A stretch of DNA of 14,418 bases from Opitutales bacterium (GCA_049599475.1 JBMYOQ010000094.1:1-14418); one strand, 5' to 3'; positions 1-14,418 are shown, counted from the first letter of the stretch. Numbers and translations are program-made. The notes: generated by a model from the sequence alone, not told the origin.

Positions 1-1
1 A

Positions 2-52
2 GTAAACGCTTCTTAGACAACCTTAAGGCTCTTTAATTTTTAGAATCGGTAT
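2..52. repeat. Left copy of 51-bp perfect terminal inverted repeat (probable mobile-element end)
   Basis: GTAAACGCTTCTTAGACAACCTTAAGGCTCTTTAATTTTTAGAATCGGTAT is the exact reverse complement of 14368-14418. It is AT-rich and puts an in-frame TAG (41-43) in front of the cheR reading frame. Confidence 0.97.
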
Positions 53-886
53 AACAACTCAGCTAAGCAAATAACGCAGGCAGAGTATGAGGCATTTCGA
101 AAAATTGTTTACGAGCACTCCCGAATCAATCTGGGAGAAAATAAGAAGGAGCTCGTAAACGCGCGCATCATCAAGCGCCTGATCGCCACTAAAATAGACA
201 CCTTTCAGGCGTATTTGCACTTTATACAGAGTGCAGCCGGCGAAGAGGAGTTTACCAATTTCATAGACGCGATCTCTACGAATCACACCTTCTTCTTCCG
301 AGAATCCGCTCACTACGATTTCCTCAACAAGGAAGTTTTCCCCGAATTTTTCAATGGGTCATTGAAATGGGGCAACCAACTGCGCCTCTGGAGCGCGGCG
401 TCTTCCACAGGAGAAGAGCCCTACTCCATAGCCATGACCTTGGCCGATGCCTTTGCAGCCAACCCAGGCAAGGATTGGAGCGTCGAATGCACCGACATTT
501 CAACCCGCGTTTTGAAAACCGCGACCGACGGCATATACAAGAAGGACAGGGTCCAAAACATTGATAATCAACGGTTAAAGAAATACTTCCAACGAGGTAC
601 CGGCAGTAAGGAGGGCTTATTTCGCATTCGTACAGAGTTAAAAAACAAGATGCGTTTTCATAAATTAAATCTCTTACAGCCGTCTTATCCTTTTAGAGAG
701 TCCTTCCACATTATCTTTAACCGCAACGTAATGATCTATTTCGACCGAGAGACCCAAGAGGAGTTGATTGCTAAAATGACCCCTCTCCTCGCCCCCGGCG
801 GCTATCTCATTATCGGTCACGCAGAAACCCTCTCAGGACTCAAGCACCCCTTGAAAATGGTGCGCCCTTCTATCTACCGAAAATAG
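53..886 (+). CDS. cheR: Chemotaxis protein-glutamate O-methyltransferase CheR, 5'-truncated (start codon lost at the repeat junction)
   Basis: The frame is open from the repeat junction: NNSAKQITQAEYEAFRKIVYEHSRINLGENKKELVNARIIKRL (CheR N-terminal helical domain). It continues through TNHTFFFRE, WSAASSTGEEPYSIAM, TDIS, IFNRNVMIYFD and GGYLIIGHAE. The ORF-track start at 215 (TTG) is internal. Confidence 0.93.
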   Translation, partial: NNSAKQITQAEYEAFRKIVYEHSRINLGENKKELVNARIIKRLIATKIDTFQAYLHFIQSAAGEEEFTNFIDAISTNHTFFFRESAHYDFLNKEVFPEFFNGSLKWGNQLRLWSAASSTGEEPYSIAMTLADAFAANPGKDWSVECTDISTRVLKTATDGIYKKDRVQNIDNQRLKKYFQRGTGSKEGLFRIRTELKNKMRFHKLNLLQPSYPFRESFHIIFNRNVMIYFDRETQEELIAKMTPLLAPGGYLIIGHAETLSGLKHPLKMVRPSIYRK

Positions 887-893
887 TGCCCAA

Positions 894-2111
894 ATGGACT
901 CCGGCCCTATCAGAGTCATGGTCGTCGACGATTCGCCGACGATCCGTAAATTACTAAAGAAAATTTTTGAATCGGATGATGAGATCGATCTGGTCGCATC
1001 CGCCATGGATCCGTTTGAAGCTCGCGATAAAATAAAACAGCACAAACCGGATGTCCTCGTCTTGGATTTGGAGCTACCGAAAATGGACGGGCTCACGTTT
1101 CTGAAGATCATCATGAAACAACGGCCGATGCCGGTGATCATCTTTAGCACTCTATCCAAAAGCGGTACTGCAATAGCATTGGAAGCCCTCAGATCCGGCG
1201 CCTTCGACGTATTTGGAAAGCCCGAATCGAGCAAGGACCTCAAGAGTATCAGCGAAACCCTTTGCATGAAGGTCAAAGAAGCCGGCTGGGCTCTTAGGCA
1301 CAAGACGTGGAGGCACCGCGTAGAGAGCAATATGACGGCCTCCCCTTTCAGCATACACCGAGGCGCCCAGTCCTCACGGATCCCATGGCCTGAGAAACCA
1401 CAAATCCGATCCAATCATTTACTCCTTGTCGGGGCATCCACCGGAGGCACCGAGGCCGTGAGCAAAATGCTGCGCAAGCTGCCTCCACAGTTTCCCCCGA
1501 TCTTGGTGACTCAGCACATTCCCAAAAACTTCTCTCATTCGTTCGCCCTCAGACTGGAGGCAGAATGCGCCCTGACAGCCAAAGAAGCCGAGCACGGAGA
1601 GGAAGCCAAAGCAGGCTGCATTTACGTGGCCCCCGGAGGCAAGCATATGACGGCTAAATGGACCGGCCGGCACTACCAATTGTCTCTCAATGAAGATGAG
1701 CCGGTCTGGCATCAACGCCCAGCGGTAGACATTCTGTTTAAGTCTTTAGTGGAATCTGCCGGCCCACACATGGTCGCCACGATCCTCACAGGTATGGGCC
1801 GAGACGGAGCCGATGGCCTGAAAGCCCTCCGCGATGCCGGAGTGCGGTGCTTTGCACAGAATGAGGAATCGTGCGTCGTTTTCGGAATGCCTCGCGCAGC
1901 CGAAGAACTCGGAGCACCCGAAAAGATGCTCCATCTCAAAGAGCTTCCCGACGCAATTATTCAGGCCTTCCAAGACAGCTTTAAGGGGAAAAAGCCACCC
2001 CCTCCTTTTCTACAGAAATCCTCAGCGGACTCAACGTTGACTCAACCTAATGCCTCACTCGCCTCTCAACGATTTACCCGACCCCCTGTTTCTCGTAATA
2101 TCGCGGACTAA
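894..2111 (+). CDS. cheB: Chemotaxis response regulator protein-glutamate methylesterase CheB
   Basis: N-terminal REC domain (VMVVDDS, VLVLDLELPKMDG, FGKP). Methylesterase motifs GASTGG, TQHIP, HQRPAVDILF, LTGMGRDGADG and VVFGMP. Starts 7 bp after cheR. Confidence 0.97.
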   Translation: MDSGPIRVMVVDDSPTIRKLLKKIFESDDEIDLVASAMDPFEARDKIKQHKPDVLVLDLELPKMDGLTFLKIIMKQRPMPVIIFSTLSKSGTAIALEALRSGAFDVFGKPESSKDLKSISETLCMKVKEAGWALRHKTWRHRVESNMTASPFSIHRGAQSSRIPWPEKPQIRSNHLLLVGASTGGTEAVSKMLRKLPPQFPPILVTQHIPKNFSHSFALRLEAECALTAKEAEHGEEAKAGCIYVAPGGKHMTAKWTGRHYQLSLNEDEPVWHQRPAVDILFKSLVESAGPHMVATILTGMGRDGADGLKALRDAGVRCFAQNEESCVVFGMPRAAEELGAPEKMLHLKELPDAIIQAFQDSFKGKKPPPPFLQKSSADSTLTQPNASLASQRFTRPPVSRNIAD

Positions 2112-3963
2112 TCTCCTTGCCCACAACGCACATCGAGACTCTCCGTGGCATAGCTTTTTCGACGGCCACCTGAATCAGTCCTGGGCCAATGCATTGACTG
2201 AGGCCCTCAATGCAGCCGCCCCGATCATCGCAATCGAGAGCGCGATCGTCCAAGCCCCGATACAAGGAAATGTCCGGACACCGCTCAACTCGGATGGGGA
2301 ATGGCTTCAAATCTGCGCCCAGTGGTATACCGATGGAGATTCAGAAAAGACCTATTTAACACTTTCCAAGGAATTGAAGCCCCTCGAGTCTGGAAACGCG
2401 GGTGACGAGGAACTCGACGCAGTGGCCTCCCGCGCATTGCTCCTGCGCCTAAAACAAGCTGAGAGTAAATTAGAGACATACCTACACCATTTCCCTGGGA
2501 TTCTCTTTAGCCAAAGGCCAGACGGCAGCTTTGCATTCATTTCACCTCGTATCGAAGAATGGATTGGGAACGCCTCTCAACGCCTAAATCGATCCACGAG
2601 CGGCCTACGCGACCTCATCGCTCCCGAAGATCGAGAAAACGCACTGCAGACGATCCAGGAGAACAGCCCCAAAGGCCAACCCTACTCTCTGCAATACCGT
2701 ATTCTGAATCCTGAGACGCGCGCCCTGATCTACATCTACGACATACGCCTTCCTATCGTGCTGAGCAACGGCACCCACCTTCAAGATGAAGGTATCTGGA
2801 TCGACGTCACCCGGCAAGCTGTCGCCGAGAACCGTATTTCCTCATCCCTCTGGAAAGAAAACCTTTCGACGATTACCAGTGGTCTCGTGCACGATTTCAG
2901 CAACAGTATGGCCGGTATATTCTCCCTCAGCGAACTCTACCACGCGGAGATGGAACCCGATCATCCAAGGCAGGAAGGTATGGGCCAAATAAAGCAACAC
3001 GCCATGCGCGCCCAAACCCTAGTGCGACGCATTGTGGATATGAATCGCGACATTGCAGGCGAAACCGCCTACCACAACCTGGAGGTCTTGATCCGCGACC
3101 ATGAGGATATCATCGGCATCATTTTGCCCAAGTCGGCCAAGCTCGATTTTCAATTCCCGGACCAAGAGCTGTTGGTCTATCTCGATGAGGTAGCCTTCCG
3201 CCAAGCCCTCATCCATTTCGTTACAAATGCACGGGATGCTCTGCGAGATGGAGGCACCTTTGGCATTCATATCGAATGTATCGACAAGGGCTTCAACATC
3301 CACATCTGGGACGATGGCCCGGGTATCCCTGAGCACGACCGATCGCGGATTTTTGAGCCTTTCTTCAGCACCAAACAAGATCAGTCTGCTGCCGGGTTTG
3401 GTCTGTATGCAGCCAAGGCATTTGCGGAATCTGCAGGGGGCTCCATCTCCTTAGGTGAAAACAAATTTCCCGGAGCCCATTTCATACTCTTCCTCCCGGA
3501 TGCCGACTCGGCAAGACCGTCCATGGAGGAATCATCCTTTCACCAGGAAGAAGCGTCCACCTCGTTAATAGCAGACGCAGCCCAGGCCCCTCAGCTGTCA
3601 TCAAACGGCTCCATTGTCATCGTGAGCAAAGACGAGGAAGCCACCCAATACCTGGCTCAGGGTCTCGCGCCGAAAAACTGGAGCATCCACGAGTATCTAG
3701 ACAGCCAGGACGCTGCTCAAAACTTGGAGGACTCCGGAGCATCCCCATCGGTAATTATTTTCGCACTAGGCACGGGCGTGCAGCTAAAGAGCGACGATTT
3801 GGAGCCGTTAAATCAGTGGGCCGACGAGGCCATGACCACTTTGTTCCTTATGCCTGATACAGAGCGACCACCCGACGATATCACCGAGTCCTTCGATATG
3901 TTACTAGACACCAGTCTAGGTATCGAAGGAATTCGCGCACGTCTGGAGCCCTGGATGGCTTAA
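2050..3963 (+). CDS. PAS-domain sensor histidine kinase with C-terminal degenerate receiver-like domain
   Basis: PAS-like region (FPGILF...DGSFAFISPRIEEWIG...IAPEDRE...YRI). H-box LVHDFSNSMAGI, N-box FVTNARDAL, G1 DDGPGIP, F-box IFEPFFSTK, G2 AGFGL. No obvious TM helix. The start overlaps cheB and is somewhat uncertain. Confidence 0.9.
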   Translation: MPHSPLNDLPDPLFLVISRTNLLAHNAHRDSPWHSFFDGHLNQSWANALTEALNAAAPIIAIESAIVQAPIQGNVRTPLNSDGEWLQICAQWYTDGDSEKTYLTLSKELKPLESGNAGDEELDAVASRALLLRLKQAESKLETYLHHFPGILFSQRPDGSFAFISPRIEEWIGNASQRLNRSTSGLRDLIAPEDRENALQTIQENSPKGQPYSLQYRILNPETRALIYIYDIRLPIVLSNGTHLQDEGIWIDVTRQAVAENRISSSLWKENLSTITSGLVHDFSNSMAGIFSLSELYHAEMEPDHPRQEGMGQIKQHAMRAQTLVRRIVDMNRDIAGETAYHNLEVLIRDHEDIIGIILPKSAKLDFQFPDQELLVYLDEVAFRQALIHFVTNARDALRDGGTFGIHIECIDKGFNIHIWDDGPGIPEHDRSRIFEPFFSTKQDQSAAGFGLYAAKAFAESAGGSISLGENKFPGAHFILFLPDADSARPSMEESSFHQEEASTSLIADAAQAPQLSSNGSIVIVSKDEEATQYLAQGLAPKNWSIHEYLDSQDAAQNLEDSGASPSVIIFALGTGVQLKSDDLEPLNQWADEAMTTLFLMPDTERPPDDITESFDMLLDTSLGIEGIRARLEPWMA

Positions 3964-4021
3964 TTTTTTCGTTTCGAAACTCTGTTCACGTATCAGCATC
4001 CCGATACATTAATCGATCTTT

Positions 4022-5296
4022 ATGGTAAACAGCGCGCCCTCCCAGGTGAAGATCCTCATCGTGGACGACGATGAGATCATCCTCTATGCCCTCAAAGAGA
4101 CCCTGGCCTCCACGGGTTATGAGTTGCTGTTACACAAGAATCCGCTCGATGCATTGAAGCATTTGGAGGAGGAAGACGATAAATTTTCAGTCATCGTATC
4201 CGACCAGCGGATGACTCACATGACTGGTCTGGAATTTCTGACTAAGGCAAAAAAAATCCAGCCCGATGCATCCCGCATTCTCATCACGGGAGTCCTGACC
4301 TTAAAGATCGTTATCGATGCTGTAAACCGAGGCGAAATTTTCCGTTTTCTGGCAAAGCCATGGATGCGCGAAGAGCTCATGGCGACCATCCAAAACGCAG
4401 TTCAGCGTTACCAACTGCTGACGCTAAACAAAAGCCTCCAAGACGATACGCTGCAGCTCAACGAGCAGCTCGCTCAGACCAACGCCGAACTCAAAAAGAA
4501 GGTCAAGGAACTCACCGACCAGAAAAAGGCACTCGACGACGCAAACTCGGCCCTAATGCGTAACTTCGAGCGATCGCTGACCCTTTCGTTTAAAATGCTC
4601 AGCACCTTCCACCCGTCCCTGGGCAGGGAGACCAAGGCCGTCGTGGACATCTGTCAGCTAATTATCGATACCGGTTACATTTCGGCGCAGCTATCGCATG
4701 TTTTGCGCGTCAGCGCGTGGCTTCACAATATCGGCTTACTCGGGATGTCTCGCGACATTCTAGACAAATACCGCAACCAGCCCGAAGCCCTCGCGCCCAA
4801 GGAGATTGATCTGATTAAAAATCACACCATCTACGGTCAGCACCTAGCCTCCTTTGCTGACGACCTCGACGGCGTAGGTGAAACCATTCGAGCCTCCCAC
4901 GAGCGCTGGGACGGCACAGGATACCCAGACGGCCTGCGCACCCAACAAATCCCCGAAGCGGCCCGATATCTTGCGGTGGCAATCTACTACGTAGAATGTC
5001 GCCAACCGAAAGAGAAAGCCCTCGACCAAATTTTAAAACAATCGGGCAAAGCCTTCGATCCGGAAGCGGTTCGACTGTTCATGAAGGCCACCCGCCTCGA
5101 CCAACTCCCTCAGAAGGTCAAAGAAGTCCTCTTTAGCGAACTCGAGCCGGGCATGCGCCTCGCAAAAGGTATCTATGCACCCAACGGATTGATGCTCGTC
5201 CCAGAAGGCGAATCCCTCACCGAAAAACAACTGTCGAAGCTCCGCGACTACAATTTGGTAGATACCATCAACCAGCGACTGATTGTTTATCAATAG
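4022..5296 (+). CDS. Response regulator REC + coiled coil + HD-GYP-like domain (RpfG-like), degenerate HD motif
   Basis: REC motifs ILIVDDD, IVSDQRM and FLAKPW. Heptad-like linker. HD-GYP-like region WLHNIG...IKNH...HERWDGTGYPDGL...SGKAFDP. C-terminal ELEPGMRLAKGIY...G..L segment. Confidence 0.9.
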   Translation: MVNSAPSQVKILIVDDDEIILYALKETLASTGYELLLHKNPLDALKHLEEEDDKFSVIVSDQRMTHMTGLEFLTKAKKIQPDASRILITGVLTLKIVIDAVNRGEIFRFLAKPWMREELMATIQNAVQRYQLLTLNKSLQDDTLQLNEQLAQTNAELKKKVKELTDQKKALDDANSALMRNFERSLTLSFKMLSTFHPSLGRETKAVVDICQLIIDTGYISAQLSHVLRVSAWLHNIGLLGMSRDILDKYRNQPEALAPKEIDLIKNHTIYGQHLASFADDLDGVGETIRASHERWDGTGYPDGLRTQQIPEAARYLAVAIYYVECRQPKEKALDQILKQSGKAFDPEAVRLFMKATRLDQLPQKVKEVLFSELEPGMRLAKGIYAPNGLMLVPEGESLTEKQLSKLRDYNLVDTINQRLIVYQ

Positions 5297-5491
5297 AATC
5301 GCAACTCGCGCTAGTTCATAAACGGTGCTCGAGGTGAGCATCTGTCCGATCGTTTCGCTAAATCGGGTCAAGGGCAGCCCCTGAGGAATTTTAATGTGAC
5401 TGGATCACAATGACTTATGGGCAGGGCTTCGTTTAAGAATTTACCTACCAATCTCTCCCCGCTATTAAGAATGCCTTATCATCGTTATAAA

Positions 5492-6307
5492 ATGAATATA
5501 CTACGTTCAATCCTACCATGTATCATGGGCATCAAAATCGCAGGCGCTGCCACGTTGAGCCCATTCGCAAAAGACCAAGTCATTTTTCACCTAACACTTG
5601 ATGAAATTAATGGCACAACCTTCGAAGATAACGCTGGAAATTTCGACGGCACATTAATCGGAACCCATAATGGCTTTGTAGATGGGTTCGTGCGAAAGGG
5701 TGTTTCTTTCGATAAAACGAGTACCTATCAATTCACAGGTGGCGTCGAAGTCGCGTCGCCCAACCAATTGTTTACCTCAGTAAACGACGCGGATTTCACA
5801 GTGTCGTTGGTCACCAGCATCGAAGATGTGAATTCAGTGGGTGGCATTTATTCATTCGGAACACAGTCACCGGTCGATGTTCGCTATGATGGACCGAATG
5901 GAGGCCTGCAGATGAGATTTTGGGGCCCAGGCCATGTGGGTACACGCGTGGCAAACATAATTCCCAAAAGTGAGATGCAGACAGACACTCTGTATTTCAT
6001 CACTGTAGTATGGGATAAAACAAATCTCGAGACACGCGGTTATGTAAACGGTGTACTCAAGGCAACCCTATCACTCGAATCCGGCATAGACTACTTCAAC
6101 GAAAATGTCGAAATGGTTATCGGTGCCATCGAATATAATGGTAGCTACCAGACAACTCTTCAGGGCACTGTAGATGAGTTTGTAATGTTAAACACAGCAC
6201 TCGAAGATAGTGCAGTCTCAGACATCTATGAATTCTATCAACGCTTCTATTACACGCTCGAGAATGACCGCGACATAGACGACATTAAAGAATCCTTAGC
6301 TCCATAG
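5492..6307 (+). CDS. Putative secreted LamG/concanavalin-A-like jellyroll domain protein
   Basis: Signal-peptide-like N-terminus from ATG 5492 (the ORF is open from 5417). LamG-like patterns HLTLDE...G..FD, DFTVS, YFITVVWD...GYVNG, MVIGA and GTVDEFVMLNTAL...V..IY. Confidence 0.72.
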   Translation: MNILRSILPCIMGIKIAGAATLSPFAKDQVIFHLTLDEINGTTFEDNAGNFDGTLIGTHNGFVDGFVRKGVSFDKTSTYQFTGGVEVASPNQLFTSVNDADFTVSLVTSIEDVNSVGGIYSFGTQSPVDVRYDGPNGGLQMRFWGPGHVGTRVANIIPKSEMQTDTLYFITVVWDKTNLETRGYVNGVLKATLSLESGIDYFNENVEMVIGAIEYNGSYQTTLQGTVDEFVMLNTALEDSAVSDIYEFYQRFYYTLENDRDIDDIKESLAP

Positions 6308-6323
6308 GATTGTTTTATCCCAA

Positions 6324-6359
6324 AATACGCAGCGGCTCGATCGCCAGTCGCTGCGTATT
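6324..6359. terminator. Stem-loop between convergent genes, probable bidirectional terminator
   Basis: AATACGCAGCGGCT-cgatcgcc-AGTCGCTGCGTATT: 14-bp stem with one G-T pair and an 8-nt loop, lying between the LamG stop (6307) and the hisA stop (6367). Confidence 0.75.
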
Positions 6360-6366
6360 CTTACAC

Positions 6367-7137
6367 CTACTTTTCGCGCCGATTCCACGCGACACAATCG
6401 CTGTATTTCACCTGGGACCCTCCAAAAATATCCAAGGCGCTTCCTATGGTGAGATCGAAATTCCCTTCGCTGAGATCATTTACAAGCTTCAGGTCTGATA
6501 ATTTGTAAGCGCCCCCCGCGTAGGTCATAGGGCGCTGCGCCCATTTTCCTAAATACTCGACGATCTCAGAGTCGATCCCTTCGCATTTCCCCTCTACGTC
6601 AGCTGCGTGTATCAAAAATTCACTACATGTATCGGCTAGCCGATCGAGCGTAGCATAATTCACATGCAAATCTGTTGGTGTCTGCCAGCGGTTCATTGCC
6701 ACAGTCCACCCATCGGCGGTTTTCCGACAACTGAGATCGACAACCAAGCGGTCGGGCCCGACGTGGCTCGATAGTTCCTGGAGTTTACCCTCATCAAAAC
6801 GGCCCGACTTATCAAAAAGCCAAGATGTTACAATTACATGACTGGCCCCTAGCGCTAGGAATTCATCTGCATTTTCAATACGGACACCACCTCCGATCTG
6901 GAGGCCTCCAGGATACGCAGCCAGAGCTCCCACCGCAGCGTCTCTATTTCCCGGCCCAAGCTGAATAACATGGCCTCCACGCAAGCCATCCTCTCGATAT
7001 CGTTCTGCAAACCATGAAGACGGCCGTTCGCTCACGAAATTTGTCTTCAGGTCAGATTCGCGCTCTGTAAGCGAGCCGCCGACAATCTGTTTGACCAGTC
7101 CATTGTGGAGATCGATGCATGGGCGAAAGTGAGTCAT
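6367..7137 (-). CDS. hisA: Phosphoribosylformimino-5-aminoimidazole carboxamide ribotide isomerase, eukaryotic (His6-like) type
   Basis: FRPCIDLHNGLVKQIVGGSL, GGHVIQLG, LQIGGG, GASHVIVTSWLF, LVVDLSCR, EFLIHAADVEGKCEGID, TYAGG and DLTIGSALDIFGG are characteristic of the His6-type HisA family. Confidence 0.93.
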   Translation of the reverse strand: MTHFRPCIDLHNGLVKQIVGGSLTERESDLKTNFVSERPSSWFAERYREDGLRGGHVIQLGPGNRDAAVGALAAYPGGLQIGGGVRIENADEFLALGASHVIVTSWLFDKSGRFDEGKLQELSSHVGPDRLVVDLSCRKTADGWTVAMNRWQTPTDLHVNYATLDRLADTCSEFLIHAADVEGKCEGIDSEIVEYLGKWAQRPMTYAGGAYKLSDLKLVNDLSEGNFDLTIGSALDIFGGSQVKYSDCVAWNRREK

Positions 7138-7401
7138 CCTGCAATTGGAGAGATTCCATGCATCAAATGCAAATCCAATATCATGGGTTACCGATCGCCT
7201 TTCGGACGAGAAATGGCACCTCCGCCAGGTAATGAAAAACCAGGATCAACTAAGGCTAAGGTATATACCGTAACTTCGCCCTTAAGTGCCCCTATTCTTA
7301 AAGTTCGAGGAAAAATTCACCGACATTCCCTACAACACTTATTGCAAGCGGGAGACGTAAGAGACTCATGTCGACCTGACTCAATTCTCAGAAAAAGGCC
7401 T

Positions 7402-7442
7402 CCTGCAAAACACACCTGCAAAACACACCTACAAATCACCTG
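7402..7442 (+). repeat. Short tandem repeat, 13-bp unit CCTGCAAAACACA
   Basis: Two exact copies (7402-7414, 7415-7427), a degenerate third (CCTACAAATCA, 7428-7438) and a partial fourth (CCTG), ending just before the ATG at 7445. Confidence 0.85.
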
Positions 7443-7444
7443 TC

Positions 7445-8767
7445 ATGGCCAATAGAAGACGAAAGAAGAACAAGCAAATGATGGCTGCTCTGACCATCGG
7501 AGCTGCTCTGAATGTCCTCATCCTCATCGTATTGGGAGGCATCACGGTATATAAATTTGTCGCCCCTAAAGAAGTCGAGCTGAAGGCACCTCCGGCACTC
7601 AAGCCCTTGGAGCCCGCTGTTGTAAAATACAACCAAAAGAAAACCAAGGATCGCCAACAAAATTCTCCTCGACCGCCTCAGCGACAAATCAAGGCGCGCT
7701 CAGTAAGCAGCATTATGACTCCCAACATTGACATTCAGGTCAGTGACGTGAGCCCCAATGTGAATGTAGCGTCTACCAATGTATCCAGTATCGGGAGCGG
7801 CATGGGACTAAGCTCAGGTGGCCTTCGCATGGGAGTGAGTGCGGTAAACTTTTTCGGTATTGAATCCAGAGGAGAACGTATTGTCATTATCATGGATGTC
7901 GCGGGCTCTATGCTCCATGAAAACCGTGGAGACATCCCTGGCTTCCAAAGAGTAAAGGAACAAGTGATCGATGTCATCGACGGTTTAAATTCCGCGACCC
8001 TTTTTAATTTGGTCATCTTCGCCAACGGGGTTGATGTGATGAGTAGCAATCTCGTCCTCGCCAATCGCGAGAATAAACAACGGGCTGCTCAATTCATCGA
8101 TCCCTATTGGAAGGCCAGAGGTGGGCGCATCACGACAGACGCCCGCCGAAGCCCCTATCTCAAGAATTACACGCCCAACCTAGGCAGCGAATTTCAAGCT
8201 CTGGGTGGGGGCTCCCGCATGGACGCCGCTTTGGCCGCTACATTCGAGATGAATGCTGATGCTATCTTCATGATCACGGATGGTACCCCGCACGTAAAAC
8301 GCGCCCTCACTACGCGCGAACAATCTCAGTATGAGAAATCGCTCGCTGCATGGGAAAAAAGAAAAGAAAACACATCTCCCAAAGAAATAAAAGAATGGCA
8401 GGATAATCGAAAACAAGTTGCGGCGAAAAACAAAAAGATTCGCGAAAACGATAAGAAGAAGCGCGATGCTCAGGGATTAGATGCTAGGATAGGTAAAGTA
8501 AAAGGCCTTGCCTCTGCCCGCCCTCCATGGGGCAATAAGCCCAGTTCGACAAAAACAATCGGCCCAGGGAGAGACTTTATCAATTGGATGAGAGATCTAG
8601 CGGAGACCAATTACGGCAATCGCAGCAAATGGCCACCCGTGAATATCATAGGTTATTCAATACCTGAAGACAGCCAAATTGCATCATTCCTCAACGACTT
8701 AAGGCGTGCTTTCCCAGGAGGGAAATACAAGACATTCGGCGACTACAGAACCGACGATAACGCATAA
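7445..8767 (+). CDS. Membrane-anchored von Willebrand factor type A (vWA)-like domain protein
   Basis: Basic N-terminus (RRRKKNK), a single TM helix and a Pro/Lys/Gln-rich linker. Then VNFFGI-RIVIIMDVAGSM (MIDAS-like), FNLVIFA, AIFMITDG and VNIIGY. Confidence 0.75.
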   Translation: MANRRRKKNKQMMAALTIGAALNVLILIVLGGITVYKFVAPKEVELKAPPALKPLEPAVVKYNQKKTKDRQQNSPRPPQRQIKARSVSSIMTPNIDIQVSDVSPNVNVASTNVSSIGSGMGLSSGGLRMGVSAVNFFGIESRGERIVIIMDVAGSMLHENRGDIPGFQRVKEQVIDVIDGLNSATLFNLVIFANGVDVMSSNLVLANRENKQRAAQFIDPYWKARGGRITTDARRSPYLKNYTPNLGSEFQALGGGSRMDAALAATFEMNADAIFMITDGTPHVKRALTTREQSQYEKSLAAWEKRKENTSPKEIKEWQDNRKQVAAKNKKIRENDKKKRDAQGLDARIGKVKGLASARPPWGNKPSSTKTIGPGRDFINWMRDLAETNYGNRSKWPPVNIIGYSIPEDSQIASFLNDLRRAFPGGKYKTFGDYRTDDNA

Positions 8768-8904
8768 TTCAGGATACACGTAGCATCCAAATATTTGCTA
8801 CAATTCTATAATCCCCGGGCCAAAATCTACGATGTATCACGTCGCCCGAATTAGAGAGCTTAGAACAAAACACCTGTAATCTTCGCAAGAATGTGAAGAT
8901 ACAA

Positions 8905-10086
8905 TCAAAGAATCCGAGCGCCGTCTCCAGATAATACTGGATACGCTTCAGGAAGTTCCCCGAATTTCTCTCCATAGGCGGCAATCACGGTCTCAGCTTG
9001 ATCTCGGATAAATGCGCCACTCGTCCAGGCAAACACCACTCCACCAAAACCACCACCACTCAGGCGTGCACCATAGACTTCAGGTTGATTCTTTAATTGC
9101 TCCACTAAAAAATCCAGCTCGGGAGTGCTGTTCTCAAACAGATCACGAGAACTCTCATGTGAAGCAAACAATAGCTGCCCGAGCGGTTCGGCCTTACCTG
9201 ATGCCAAGAGAGACAAGGCCTGTTTGACACGCTCGTTTTCGCGCGTCACGTGGAGCGCTCGTTTAAATTGCACCCCGGTAAGGTCAGCCTCACACGGCTC
9301 GACTTGACCTGATGTCAATTCACACAGTACCTTCGTGCCAGAATAGGTCTTCTCCAGAACTGCCACCGCTTGCATGCATTCGTCATTCCTTTCCGAATAC
9401 TTAGAATCCACATTGTGATGTTTTATCTTGGTATCAAACACCCAGAACTGCGTTAAATCTGGTAGTCGGTGCTCAGACACTACATTCTGAGCCGTATCCA
9501 TGAATACGAGATGGTTCTGCTTTCCGTAAGCAGACACACCTTGATCCAAAATACCACACGGCACCCCGACATAGGTATTTTCCGCCTGCCGTGCGATCTT
9601 TGCGATCTCCTCAGGCTCGTCGATATCCATATCGTACAGTATCGATATTGCCCTTACAGTCGCCAGTTCAATGGCCGCACTGCTACTGAGCCCAGCACCC
9701 GAAGGAAGATCACTCCAAAAACCGATATCGAAGCCTCGCTTTATGGTGATGCCTCGATCGAGAATCGCCCGCAATACACCGATCGGATAGTTGGCCCATG
9801 CCGCGGATCCATCAGGGACGAATGACTGAAGTTCTTCGAAGCCCAATTCAATGATACCCGCACCTGAACCCTCGGTGTTGGACACCAAGCGAATGCGCTT
9901 ATCTTCACGTTCCGAAATGCCCGCGTAGACTCCGAGATTCAAAGCAACGCCTAAAACACAGCCGCCATTATAATCCGTGTGATTCCCGAGGAATTCCAGC
10001 CGCCCGGGCGCCATAGTCACATAGGCAGGCTCTGCACCATAGGCTTCGAGGTATGTATCGACAACGGCGTTCAGCTGTGGGGTCAT
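8905..10086 (-). CDS. galK: Galactokinase (GHMP kinase family)
   Basis: APGRLEFLGNHTDYNGG, LPSGAGLSSSAA, CGILDQ, SHESSRDLFENSTPELD and GARLSGGGFGG. A GAGGTG SD-like sequence lies upstream on the minus strand. Confidence 0.9.
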   Translation of the reverse strand: MTPQLNAVVDTYLEAYGAEPAYVTMAPGRLEFLGNHTDYNGGCVLGVALNLGVYAGISEREDKRIRLVSNTEGSGAGIIELGFEELQSFVPDGSAAWANYPIGVLRAILDRGITIKRGFDIGFWSDLPSGAGLSSSAAIELATVRAISILYDMDIDEPEEIAKIARQAENTYVGVPCGILDQGVSAYGKQNHLVFMDTAQNVVSEHRLPDLTQFWVFDTKIKHHNVDSKYSERNDECMQAVAVLEKTYSGTKVLCELTSGQVEPCEADLTGVQFKRALHVTRENERVKQALSLLASGKAEPLGQLLFASHESSRDLFENSTPELDFLVEQLKNQPEVYGARLSGGGFGGVVFAWTSGAFIRDQAETVIAAYGEKFGELPEAYPVLSGDGARIL

Positions 10087-10153
10087 GAGAGATCAAAACA
10101 CCTCGGGTGCCCCCGCAAAGCAACTGAAAAATGCCTGTATACGCTATCCAGCG

Positions 10154-11371
10154 CTAGCGCCCCACAAAGACGAAATCTGGCTGCGTGACATTGGGCAATC
10201 GGCTCGAGTGTAAACTCGCGATTCGACCTGTCTGTGTATCTAGGAGTTTCAGCTGCTTGGTGCCACGATACCGATAGGTGAATGCGATGTGACGGCCGTC
10301 GCTCAGCCACGCAGGCTCGACACAAGAGCCAGGCTCGTTTGTCAACTTTACCGCACGTCCATCCTTAAACGAATAGAGCGCCAGTTGAAACTCTCCGCCT
10401 GAGCGCATCGTAAACCCGATCAGATCTGGATTTACCGGATTCCATACCGGCTCGGCATTGTAGCCCCCCATCCCTGTTCTCAAGCGCTTGTTCTGCTTTT
10501 TGGCCGGATCAAGGAGTATCAATTGCGGACCTCCCCAATCGTCGGACATAAATACAATCATCTTGGAATCCGGCGACCACGTGGGAGAGGAAACAATTCC
10601 CTTAGTCCATGTCTGCCGCCGAGCTCCCGAGCCGTTTGTCCGCGAGATATACAATTCCGCACTCCCCGAGCTATTCGAGACAAAGGAAATCGATCGCCCA
10701 TCTGGGCTAAAGCGGCCACCCAAGTTAGATCCGCGATAATTCGCAACCGTCGTGCGCGTATTTTTTTTCAGGTCCTGAACAACGATGTCCGGGTAGCCCG
10801 TCAGGGCGTATGTCGTATAAATAATCTTCTCGCCATCGGGACTCCAGCGCGGGCTCACCACATTGTTTTTATAATTGGTAACCGCTCGGACCTCCTGAAA
10901 CAGAATGTCCGATACGTAGACCTCGCGATTCCCCGTAGTTTCCGCGACAAACGTAAGTTTTCCCCGGAAAAAGCCCGGAGTTCCTGTCAGATCTCTCACA
11001 ATCGCATCCAAAGCGGCGCGCAATGCTTCGTTACTGTCTCCGCCTGATGCGCTTCCCCTGCTTTCCACAGTTTTGCCATCACTGGATACGACTGTGTACT
11101 GCGCCTGATTGCCTGCCGCCGAAAGACGCACGATCCAGTCCGCAGATCTCGGAGTCGCTACATCAAAGGCCCCATGCAGCTGGAAAGCCTGCTGCGCCAA
11201 TTTCTGCTGAAGGCTATTGGTCGACTCAACAGCGATACGGATCGGCTTGCGCCCGGTCCGCGTGATGGCCTCTAGATTCTGAGTCTGCGCGTGCACGAAC
11301 ACTGGCATTGCGAGGACAACACCCAAGAGGAGACATGAAGAAAAAAAGACTTTTCGGAAAGAATCAGACAT
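10154..11371 (-). CDS. tolB: TolB-family periplasmic beta-propeller protein (PD40 repeats)
   Basis: Signal peptide ending in VHA. DAIVRDLTGTPGFFRGKLTFV junction motif. Repeats SPRWSPDG, GRFSPDG, SPTWSPDS, EPVWNP and EPAWLSDG. Confidence 0.85.
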   Translation of the reverse strand: MSDSFRKVFFSSCLLLGVVLAMPVFVHAQTQNLEAITRTGRKPIRIAVESTNSLQQKLAQQAFQLHGAFDVATPRSADWIVRLSAAGNQAQYTVVSSDGKTVESRGSASGGDSNEALRAALDAIVRDLTGTPGFFRGKLTFVAETTGNREVYVSDILFQEVRAVTNYKNNVVSPRWSPDGEKIIYTTYALTGYPDIVVQDLKKNTRTTVANYRGSNLGGRFSPDGRSISFVSNSSGSAELYISRTNGSGARRQTWTKGIVSSPTWSPDSKMIVFMSDDWGGPQLILLDPAKKQNKRLRTGMGGYNAEPVWNPVNPDLIGFTMRSGGEFQLALYSFKDGRAVKLTNEPGSCVEPAWLSDGRHIAFTYRYRGTKQLKLLDTQTGRIASLHSSRLPNVTQPDFVFVGR

Positions 11372-11567
11372 CTGCTTATACCCTAATTACAAAGCTCACC
11401 TAGCAAAGAACAAATCAATGTTGAATTTAGTTACGACAAATTATTCAACCCTTAGCCTATTACGGTTAGGTTTTTGATATAACGTTTTCAGCACGGTTAC
11501 TGGGCCGAATTCGCTTGAGCGGCTGTTGCCATTCTGTCATCAAGACGTTTCAAAGCTGCACATTACT

Positions 11568-12641
11568 TTGAATAAAACTGCTCTAGATTCGATTCTGAAA
11601 ACGGTAAAATACCCTGGATTCAGCCGGGATATTGTGTCGTTTGGATTGGTAAAAGGTCATTCGCTGAAGGATGGTCATGCCACCGTGGACCTGCAATTGA
11701 CTTCGAAAGATCCCGAAATCGCGAAGAAAATTAAGGCATCCATCGAGGCCGCGTGCGCTCTGTCGCCAGAGGTCGACAGCGTTACGGTGAACAGCCAGGT
11801 AAGCGCACCTCCCAGCCCAGGAGAACAAGGTGCACAGCCCTCGCGGATCGAAGGGGTCCGTCACGTAATCGCTATCGCTAGCGGCAAAGGCGGCGTAGGC
11901 AAAAGCACTGTGACGACGAATATCGCATGTGCTACAGAGCAACTTTTGGCGGAACAGGGAATGCCCGGGCGTGTGGGAATCATGGATTGCGATATCTATG
12001 GTCCATCCATTCCCATGATGTTGGGAATCGGCACAGAGCCCGAAATCGAGGATAATGCCCTCATTCCGCCGGAAAATTACGATGTCCGCTGCATGAGTAT
12101 GGGCTATTTCCTAGGCCCGAATGCGCCCGTCGTTTGGCGTGGCCCACGTATTCACCAGACGATTCAACAGTTTATCACCAACGTAGCCTGGGGAGACCTC
12201 GAAGTACTTTTCGTCGACCTGCCTCCTGGAACCGGAGATGCCCATTTATCTCTGTGCCAAAGCCTGGCACTCGATGGAGTTGTCGTAGTTACAACCCCTC
12301 AAGCAGCGGCGGTAAATGTCGCTATAAGAGGAGCTATGATGTTTCCAGAAATGAATGTTCCCTTCGCCGGTGTAGCCGAAAATATGAGCTACCTCGAAGA
12401 TCCAGTCACTTCGAAGAAACAATACATTTTCGGCCAAGGCGGTGGCGCTCACACAGCGATGAATTTAGACTGCGATTTTCTAGGCCAAATTCCTCTCGAC
12501 GGCAACGTCCGCGCAGGCGGCGATAGCGGTATTCCCATCGTCATCTCAGAACCCGACACCACAACAGCCTTCGCTTTCCGAAGTATCGCCAGCCAAGTGC
12601 TCGGCTTTCTACAACGCTCCGAAACAACGAGTTCGCGTTGA
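11568..12641 (+). CDS. mrp: Mrp/NBP35 (ApbC) family P-loop ATPase, Fe-S cluster carrier-like
   Basis: N-terminal DUF59-like domain (LKTVKYPGFSRDIVSFGLV). Deviant Walker A SGKGGVGKST, DCDIYGPSIP, VVWRGP, DLPPGTGD, VTTPQ and ENMS. TTG 11568 is preferred as the start; the ORF is open from 11526. Confidence 0.92.
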   Translation: MNKTALDSILKTVKYPGFSRDIVSFGLVKGHSLKDGHATVDLQLTSKDPEIAKKIKASIEAACALSPEVDSVTVNSQVSAPPSPGEQGAQPSRIEGVRHVIAIASGKGGVGKSTVTTNIACATEQLLAEQGMPGRVGIMDCDIYGPSIPMMLGIGTEPEIEDNALIPPENYDVRCMSMGYFLGPNAPVVWRGPRIHQTIQQFITNVAWGDLEVLFVDLPPGTGDAHLSLCQSLALDGVVVVTTPQAAAVNVAIRGAMMFPEMNVPFAGVAENMSYLEDPVTSKKQYIFGQGGGAHTAMNLDCDFLGQIPLDGNVRAGGDSGIPIVISEPDTTTAFAFRSIASQVLGFLQRSETTSSR

Positions 12642-12706
12642 ACCAACAGTTTCACCTCACCACTGAAATCCCGACCCAAAACCACGTGGTAATCCCTCCT
12701 CTCAAC

Positions 12707-12913
12707 ATGAAGAAAGAACGGCAGACCGAAGCTGATAATAGCTTCGCCACCAAATCGAGTCTGTATCAAGAATTCCTCGCCGAACGAGAAGAAATTCTCC
12801 GGCATAAATGGCTGGAATCCGAGAAGAAAGGAACGGACATCGGTTTCGAAAAAGCACTTCTCGATTGGATCCGCCACCACCGCGACGACTGGAGGAAGGG
12901 TCGAAAAGACTAG
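12707..12913 (+). CDS. Small conserved protein, DUF4032-like
   Basis: SSLYQEFLAEREEILRHKWLESEKKGTDIGFEKALLDW matches the I..HKW..SE..G.D.G...A..DW pattern recalled for DUF4032. ATG 12707 is preferred over TTG 12638. Confidence 0.75.
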   Translation: MKKERQTEADNSFATKSSLYQEFLAEREEILRHKWLESEKKGTDIGFEKALLDWIRHHRDDWRKGRKD

Positions 12914-12968
12914 GGTACGACGCCCCTTACTGATAATAAATTATTGTTAAAGTTTTTAAACTCAGAGA

Positions 12969-13541
12969 TCAGAATTCACCGATAGCACTCTGATAACAGA
13001 AATGAAAAAGGATCTTCCATTCCAGATCCTGCACTTGCTCGCAAAACGCAGCTAAATCTCCTCCCTCAGAGACCGCGCGTTCGCACAATTTCACAAAAAA
13101 CATAGCATCCCACACTCGGATATTCGCGTGTATTTCGTCTGTCTCCAACGCTCCCATTTGGGCGAGAATCGCACCCGCGCCCTGAGCTAGATAATTATAA
13201 ATCGGATGATTCCCAGCCTGATGCATCCAGTAGCGTGCATTGGGATAATCTCCCTCACGTCGGTGCAAAATACCGTGCCACAGACAACCTGTCGCTGAAT
13301 CCACACGATTGATGACATCGTGGGCTGAGTCCAGGGCATCAAATCGCAACCAAAGCCCAGCCAGTGCCGCATCAGCCATCGTAGAATCCTCGATCGCTAA
13401 ACCGTCAAATAAGTCACCCGAACTCACGCTCGTGAGCGCGGCAACCCCTTCGGTCGCGGGAGCCCCCGCCTTCAAAGGCATTTGTGCAGGAAGATTCAAC
13501 AGATCAGAAATAAGAGGCGTATACGCGTATTCTTCAGACAT
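12969..13541 (-). CDS. Conserved hypothetical helical protein (HRREGDxxNAxYW motif)
   Basis: 190-aa ORF containing LWL..D.LD.AH...Q/N...G..WHGILHRREGDYPNARYW, a motif I recognise from uncharacterised bacterial proteins. Confidence 0.75.
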   Translation of the reverse strand: MSEEYAYTPLISDLLNLPAQMPLKAGAPATEGVAALTSVSSGDLFDGLAIEDSTMADAALAGLWLRFDALDSAHDVINRVDSATGCLWHGILHRREGDYPNARYWMHQAGNHPIYNYLAQGAGAILAQMGALETDEIHANIRVWDAMFFVKLCERAVSEGGDLAAFCEQVQDLEWKILFHFCYQSAIGEF

Positions 13542-13634
13542 ACTGTAAGCCTTAATGCTGCATTCGAGGATTCCTATAAAGCAGAATCGCCCAAAAAAAC
13601 ACGCACAACTCGGAGTCGCAGAATCAACGCACCT

Positions 13635-14084
13635 CTAGCGTAACTCGATGATTTGAACCGCGCGCTCTCCCACCCGCTCGGGCACCGAGAACGCCGCCTC
13701 ATCGAACTTCGGCATGCTAAAAACTCTGCGCGCATTGTTAGAAAATGCATATGGCTCCGTGGGGTTCCCAAAGATACCTTTGTCCAGCTTTCCATCGTTA
13801 TCCACGTCATGAAACACGCAGAGCGCGTAGACACCTCCCGGCTTCAAAGCATCAATGATGAGCTTCTTTTCCGTCTTCACGACAGGAATGATCTTCGAAA
13901 TATCTGGAGCTCCCTCGACAAAAGCCTCGGGAGATTCCATCAACGCGACCCAAAGCGAACCCTTTGTCTTCTCAATGCCCCGAACCTGCACTTCGACCAT
14001 CAGAGCATGCGCCACCGAGCTCCCGAGAACCGAGAGAGCAAGTAAACACGCTTGAAAAAGCCGAAAGGACGAAAAAGAATTCAC
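13635..14084 (-). CDS. DUF2141 family secreted protein
   Basis: Signal peptide ending in AHA. KGSLWVAL and YALCVFHDVDNDGKLDKGIFGNPTEPYAFSNN...PKFDEAAF. Confidence 0.88.
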   Translation of the reverse strand: MNSFSSFRLFQACLLALSVLGSSVAHALMVEVQVRGIEKTKGSLWVALMESPEAFVEGAPDISKIIPVVKTEKKLIIDALKPGGVYALCVFHDVDNDGKLDKGIFGNPTEPYAFSNNARRVFSMPKFDEAAFSVPERVGERAVQIIELR

Positions 14085-14103
14085 ACTTTAAACTGCACCA
14101 ATC

Positions 14104-14397
14104 GTGGAAAATATCAAATCTGAGAACGAGAAAGGCCCGCGCATCGATAAGTGGCTTTGGGCAACCCGCATCTTCAAAACTCGTACAGTCGCGGCCGAAG
14201 CATGCCGTGGGGGACACGTCAAAATCCAAGGCCAACGCGTAAAACCCTCCTACCTCGTGCAGATCGGAGATAAACTCGAAGTAGAGCGCGCCCATCGCCG
14301 CTTGGACATCGAAGTGAAAGCCTTCCTAGACAAGCGTGTGGCGGCAAAACTCGTCGAAGCATACCTGATACCGATTCTAAAAATTAAAGAGCCTTAA
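14104..14397 (+). CDS. hslR: Ribosome-associated heat shock protein Hsp15 (S4 RNA-binding domain), 3'-truncated by the terminal repeat
   Basis: RIDKWLWATRIFKTRTVAAEACRGGHVKIQGQRVKPS...GD is the Hsp15 S4 signature. The last residues (IPILKIKEP*) are read from the repeat that begins at 14368. Confidence 0.88.
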   Translation: MENIKSENEKGPRIDKWLWATRIFKTRTVAAEACRGGHVKIQGQRVKPSYLVQIGDKLEVERAHRRLDIEVKAFLDKRVAAKLVEAYLIPILKIKEP

Positions 14398-14418
14398 GGT
14401 TGTCTAAGAAGCGTTTAC
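14368..14418. repeat. Right copy of 51-bp perfect terminal inverted repeat (probable mobile-element end)
   Basis: ATACCGATTCTAAAAATTAAAGAGCCTTAAGGTTGTCTAAGAAGCGTTTAC matches the reverse complement of 2-52 at 51/51 positions. It supplies the last codons and the stop of the hslR ORF. Confidence 0.97.

Follow-up and report, generated by a model that had tools for sequence, protein, structure and literature searches.

Two probable IS630-family insertions beside TNA target sites bound a 14-kb contig of an Opitutales genome

A perfect inverted repeat brackets a 14,418-nt stretch of DNA from an Opitutales bacterium (GCA_049599475.1, JBMYOQ010000094.1), and this whole stretch is referred to as the window in the following. 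We consider it highly probable that the repeat represents the ends of two oppositely oriented copies of an IS630-type insertion sequence, which inserted independently and at which the assembler broke the contig, with the 14-kb segment between them being ordinary chromosome.

The window is the entire contig C94 of the genome (G000), a draft assembly of 4.68 Mb in 146 contigs with 292 contig ends, and both arms of the repeat therefore reach contig ends. A first-pass annotation had described a perfect 51-bp inverted repeat at both edges, interrupting coding sequence on either side and enclosing ordinary genes, and it was accurate in each of these points. The arms (2–52 and 14368–14418) are 51 nt long and 100% complementary. 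The element itself accounts for 50 of the 51 bases, its borders lying at 51 and 14369; bases 52 (T) and 14368 (A) belong to palindromic TNA target sites. The left arm abuts a cheR gene devoid of a start (PF03705, PF01739), and the right arm cuts hslR (PF01479, S4 domain) after codon 88, the rest of this gene being located at the right end of contig C143. All 14 interior proteins scanned against Pfam are ordinary, and none of them matched a transposase, recombinase or replication family (Table 1). A 190-aa protein encoded at 12972–13541 (minus strand) has no Pfam match and is 74% identical in a genome of the same genus (G001).

Table 1. Features of the window (14,418 nt)
Feature	Coordinates	Strand	Evidence
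Right end (IRR) of predicted IS630-family copy 1: last transposase codons, stop at 14–16, imperfect ~33-bp terminal inverted repeat at 19–51	1..51	+	23/292 contig ends; 25/33 versus left end; 32/51 versus L091; overlap with 1,135-bp contig
Target site TAA of copy 1, one copy of the 3-bp TNA duplication	52..54	.	Junction counts
cheR, cut near its 5' end	52..886	+	Pfam CheR_N and CheR; orthologs at 56–59% identity
Chromosomal genes between the copies, not element cargo	887..14103	.	Pfam scan of 14 proteins; synteny of 12662–14367
Interior genes: cheB, PAS histidine kinase, HD response regulator, LamG protein, HisA-like, VWA-like, galactokinase, TolB-like, Mrp/NBP35, DUF2141, others	887..14103		
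hslR, 5' part, 88 codons	14104..14368	+	S4 domain; 85% identical ortholog in G001; empty-site alignment
Target site TGA of copy 2; same triplet beside partner left end on C143	14366..14368	.	
Right end (IRR) of predicted IS630-family copy 2, opposite in orientation to copy 1; transposase stop at 14406–14404	14369..14418	-	

When the repeat was counted at contig ends, as the first-pass annotation had advised, the sequence of the arms (the right end) was recovered at 23 of the 292 contig ends, always with the same side toward the contig edge, and a partner sequence (the left end) at 24. The ends are identical within each of these two sets over the bases they hold, and the two types form an imperfect inverted repeat with 25 of 33 positions matching. 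A further, 24th match to the right end, on C26 (C26:1-93), is nested: one copy inserted there into a TTA within the right end of another, of which a remnant of 39 bp is left. Summing the larger end count for each target triplet yields at least 27 insertion sites. An intact element of the form TACC...GGTA was not found inside the contigs of G000; searches of this genome for the transposase body returned no match to the protein of the related element L091 described below, only a different, truncated IS630 on C133 with PF13358, and only two unrelated pieces with PF01609.

Repeats are abundant in this genome, with 230 of the 292 contig ends falling into 26 repeat clusters. Five plus five contig ends (right ends of C8, C54, C104, C129 and C144; left ends of C27, twice, C60, C106 and C146) belong to a sister element that has related TACC ends, is flanked by TNA and carries the same transposase tail. 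The genome also contains miniature elements, about 260 bp or 49 bp long, that share this type of inverted repeat (C82:144-403, C2:80773-81033, C2:122905-122953 and C47:22115-22163); their two flanks do not match, one being TAA and the other TTA. A commoner repeat pair, which resembles an IS21-type element, is found at 31 and 27 contig ends and contains internal short repeats; one copy of it truncates the different IS630 at C133:5828-6187. Besides C26, eight of the 47 flanks of the element studied here lie in other repeats with 5–26 hits each (C25_L, C77_L, C103_R, C112_R, C122_R, C28_L, C71_L and C142_L), which could reflect either target preference or survival in harmless sites.

A degenerate end-motif search of GTDB genomes found 75 stretches, among them a 1,134-bp element of Thalassobacterium maritimum SDUM461003 (L091; NZ_JARXHW010000157.1) that is flanked by TTA on either side. 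The 348-aa protein it encodes scores 209 bits against NF033545 (cut-off 100) and contains PF13358. Both ends of the G000 element align to it without gaps, with 32/51 identical positions for the right end and 33/51 for the other. The two elements are alike in length, in their TACC termini, in the TNA on both sides, in the transposase tail and in having been collapsed into a contig of their own in a draft assembly, but with ends only about 63–65% identical they are different elements, the comparison covering the ends of the G000 element. At seven metagenome loci, the right ends match ours at 28–33 of 51 positions; nine metagenome loci considered as the same element were rejected, the best right-end match being 33/51. 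Window positions 2–16 encode four residues and a stop codon that match the tail of the L091-clade transposases, and the same five C-terminal residues, of which the window contains the first only in part, are found in eight among the 120 homologs listed. Because these positions encode the transposase tail of the clade, both arms are right ends and the two copies are opposed, with the predicted transposase frame ending 35 bp inside the right end.

According to passages in three sources, IS630 elements combine terminal inverted repeats with a DDE transposase of the IS630/Tc1/mariner superfamily (PMC6267812, PMC3606827, PMC6352166), and one of these passages gives a length range of 1,000–1,400 bp (PMC6352166). 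The G000 element resembles them in its length and its terminal repeats, and by homology its transposase is predicted to be of this kind. Contigs of 1,135 bp and 1,139 bp from two sequencing runs (X1 and X3) end at the window junction, and the terminal repeats agree with each other and with L091 as given above. For the transposase (NF033545/PF13358, DDE triad), it is the closest relative, L091, that passes, the G000 end encoding only tail residues and a stop. From these sequence comparisons, we infer that the repeated element is an IS630-family insertion sequence with one 348-aa DDE transposase. Exact patterns of 27 and 25 bases from its end had no match in genome_contigs or metagenome_contigs, collections in which its own and very near genomes may be absent. 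The end was found in 0 of 40 relatives even when up to two mismatches were allowed; it had no match among plasmids and gave only hits of E 0.4 among phages. With its exact end unmatched in genomes, metagenomes, relatives and plasmids, it is probably an unnamed member of the family.

In run X1, the 1,135-bp contig has a depth of 842.1 and overlaps window positions 1–51, and a single unbroken contig spans positions 25–14393 at a depth of 23.7; the ratio of 35 is a rough copy estimate, as depth is not a copy number. This run may be the source of the assembly and hence not independent of it. Run X3, which stems from another study, holds the 1,139-bp contig, which matches window positions 1–52 with zero differences. 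Run X2 covers the window only by short low-depth pieces, with no junction signal among the matches listed. The 1,135-bp high-depth contig is the collapsed element; it is known from its length and depth, and the placement in the family draws on about 50 bp at each end together with its size. A body seen in this way could also belong to a non-autonomous 1.1-kb derivative or to another family with IS630-like ends, and the 261-bp and 49-bp miniature elements with related ends indicate that non-autonomous forms do exist in this genome. We nevertheless judge this very improbable, given that the length equals that of the intact relatives L091, L114 and L115 (1,134 bp) and that the right end retains the transposase tail and stop of its clade in register.

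Arms that both reach contig ends would also be produced by a library adapter or linker attached to a random fragment, which the first-pass annotation had listed as its third option. This is contradicted by a partner end that occurs in matching number, by the imperfect inverted repeat between the two, by a strict TNA rule at the junctions, by the homology of the ends to those of IS630 elements elsewhere in bacteria, by the 1,135-bp contig of high depth and by the recurrence of the same sequence in the run of a second study, and we regard the probability of such an artefact as negligible.

Immediately outside the element, a TNA triplet stands at 22 of 23 right ends and at all 24 left ends (46/47 junctions). 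The one exception is the right end on C43, with GAA and no left end to match, which may stem from an off-target insertion or an adjacent deletion. TAA and TTA together account for 35 of the 47 junctions, as against 36% of TNA sites genome-wide, and the base that follows TNA is mixed (G in 20), with no fixed C or G beside the triplet. Identical sequence results whether 3 bp are duplicated beside TACC ends or 1 bp beside ends that are longer by one base; the C43 junction leans weakly toward the former.

The insertion in hslR allows the duplication to be read against an empty site. Three left ends carry the matching triplet, and only that of C143 completes hslR, to 131 aa. In G001, the chromosome runs unbroken from homologs of C143 into homologs of C94, with the window stretch 12662–14367 matching, and the hslR site is empty there, in the same gene order. 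Joining the two contigs with a 3-bp overlap gives a gapless 118-nt alignment to G001 and the 131-aa protein; its protein score is the best, at 602 compared with 591 and 583 for the other in-frame overlaps, and the canonical 2-bp TA duplication truncates hslR at 89 aa. The gene is single in the assembly and has lost its last 43 codons, and its G001 ortholog is 85% identical. Matching TNA triplets on both sides of an element with TACC/TACT termini are thus seen at the hslR copy and would be expected at the cheR copy. When all 23 right ends were paired with left ends by reading-frame continuity, the result was ambiguous for most, and hslR alone was verified against a relative. The 23 and 24 ends, the high-depth 1,135-bp contig, the homology to L091 and the empty site in hslR together bear out what the first-pass annotation had placed first, namely two insertions of a multicopy element with the assembly broken about 50 bp inside each.

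Two near-identical 1.1-kb copies in inverted orientation could, from general knowledge, recombine or act together, and the 14.3-kb segment might then be a composite transposon or have been inverted between them; the first-pass annotation had treated the bracketed segment as a unit and had considered it as a composite or mobile one. This idea did not hold up and appears very unlikely to us. The two copies on C94 carry different target triplets (TAA on the left and TGA on the right), and the flanks of the right copy, on C94 and on a unique partner contig, have one triplet in common and together restore hslR and the gene order found in G001, which means that this end has neither moved nor flipped. 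A composite transposon would be expected to show one duplication shared by its outer flanks and to be absent or displaced in relatives, whereas here the right copy has a duplication of its own and G001 keeps the same genes in the same order across the site, the outer flank of the left copy being a predicted one. The outward-facing ends of C143 and C122 are right ends as well. The copies are somewhat clustered, which would speak for joint action: three lie within 18.6 kb, and, provided that the cheR junction belongs with C122, four within 27.2 kb (simulated P 0.007–0.03, in a test chosen after the cluster was seen). Three copies within 18.6 kb, however, have a chance P of 0.08–0.24. We take the clustering as at most a hint of local hopping of the element.

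Chance could not produce a sequence match like that of the 51-nt repeat, but it readily produces the arrangement of ends on C94. Shuffling the labels of the 292 contig ends, 23 of them right ends, 20,000 times gave one or more contigs with a right end on both sides in 61% of trials; two such contigs are observed (C92 and C94), and two or more are expected with P = 0.21. Terminal inverted repeats of at least 40 nt occur on 10 of the 146 contigs, C94 included, and the nine others look alike, with terminal repeats from several repeat families. If every combination of the two end types is counted, contigs bearing the element at both ends slightly exceed chance (7 versus 3.7 expected, P = 0.047). 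We see C94 as ordinary chromosome between two independent insertions.

The left insertion is less readily reconstructed. No in-frame ATG, GTG or TTG lies between the junction and position 215, and orthologs of cheR at 56–59% identity carry an N-terminal extension. Eleven left ends share the matching triplet. Among them, the left end of C122 would supply an in-frame ATG located 14 codons upstream, with a proline-rich start resembling that of the ortholog in another relative, G003; C68, C95 and C119 likewise offer in-frame starts. In an N-terminal comparison, C142_L scored 27 and C122_L 23, the C142 flank being a 22-copy repeat. Synteny between C122 and cheR was found in none of five relatives, and the gene upstream of cheR in G003 is a different one. 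On balance, the missing cheR start probably lies at the left end of C122. A sigma-70-type promoter was not found in window positions 1–260. The HD response regulator, which here lies downstream of cheR-cheB and a kinase (window 59–5296), is located upstream of cheR in G003 (L010, G003:C53). It is likely that hslR and cheR are both inactivated, and the loss of cheR may be buffered by three other CheR-like proteins, for which matches exist elsewhere in G000.

The following course of events would account for these observations. A recent burst of an IS630-family element of about 1,134 bp would have spread to at least 27 sites by end counts, or roughly 35 by depth. Elements of the IS630/Tc1/mariner superfamily move by cut-and-paste transposition, and by analogy the element would do so here with a 3-nt staggered cut. 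Two copies would have landed independently, 14.3 kb apart and in opposed orientation, the first in a TAA near the cheR start and the second in a TGA within hslR, each insertion duplicating its own 3-bp target. Faced with near-identical copies, the assembler would have collapsed their bodies into one short contig outside this genome bin, leaving about 50 bp of right end on each side of C94. A comparable case is Ca. Endozoicomonas cretensis, whose assembly, according to passages of its description, is likewise fragmented by insertion sequence ends, at 69% of scaffolds; its IS630 element ISEcret5 (1,149 bp, more than 49 copies) has a listed inverted repeat that opens with the same A plus TACC-type motif as ours, and a listed duplication of 2-bp TA (PMC6007542).

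The usual rule for the family is indeed the latter: passages in three sources give the IS630 duplication as TA (PMC6352166, PMC6267812, PMC3606827), one of them reporting ISHsp2, with TTAA, as an exception (PMC3606827). While canonical IS630 elements thus duplicate 2 bp, the G000 element duplicates TNA, and it is not alone in this. In Aeromonas caviae, 11 of 11 full-length copies of an IS630 element are flanked by an identical TNA on either side, each of the four bases being represented in the middle position (13 loci were examined, two of which are the halves of an interrupted copy). The same was found at 10 of 12 plasmid loci and at three of four full-length metagenome loci, both sets having been chosen by similarity to the L091 protein and hence not a sample of the family. 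The plasmid loci include ISAcma28, ISAva6, ISAzs14 and ISAli2 (names from RefSeq product lines), which resemble the G000 element in their TACC or TACT termini, in the identical TNA on both sides and in their length of 1,134–1,176 bp, but are distant from it, their transposases being 28–30% identical to the L091 protein. A subgroup of IS630 elements duplicates TNA and not the usual TA. In the literature covered, mainly open-access, we found no statement of a TNA duplication for a bacterial IS630, and passages of PMC3608246 do not mention the target duplication. Miniature forms of 80–200 bp with matching TNA were also observed in cyanobacteria and in one Omnitrophota genome. A grouping of the TNA-type elements was sought in a tree of 13 proteins, which cannot show it: the three non-TNA rows sit on long branches, four loci gave no row, and three rows were labelled before their TNA flanks had been read.

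Passages on the Tc4 elements of nematodes, arthropods and tardigrades describe a Tc1/mariner group that duplicates a TNA triplet within a CTNAG target and has a DDD motif (PMC11071193). The likeness, as far as this description goes, lies in the TNA duplication; Tc4 is eukaryotic, whereas the G000 junctions have a mixed base after TNA, with no fixed C or G, and the L091 protein has the final glutamate of IS630 transposases. As a broader reading, which we hold to be rather doubtful at present, a large TNA-targeting subgroup of IS630 might have gone unrecognised, filed under the TA rule, as a bacterial counterpart of Tc4 with a different cut geometry, caught here in a live burst with possible local hopping. 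With similar reserve, its members, seen in Verrucomicrobiota, cyanobacteria, Alpha- and Gammaproteobacteria and Thermus, might share a target that recurs about every 18 bases.

The bracketed 14-kb segment is thus a draft-assembly break at a multicopy insertion sequence and of little consequence in itself. An IS630 that duplicates TNA rather than TA, by contrast, bears on the calling of ends, miniature derivatives and empty sites, and poses a testable question on how the IS630 transposase cuts. For the organism, the picture is that of a marine Opitutales-like genome with a heavy expansion of insertion sequences, in which hslR, and probably cheR, have been freshly knocked out.
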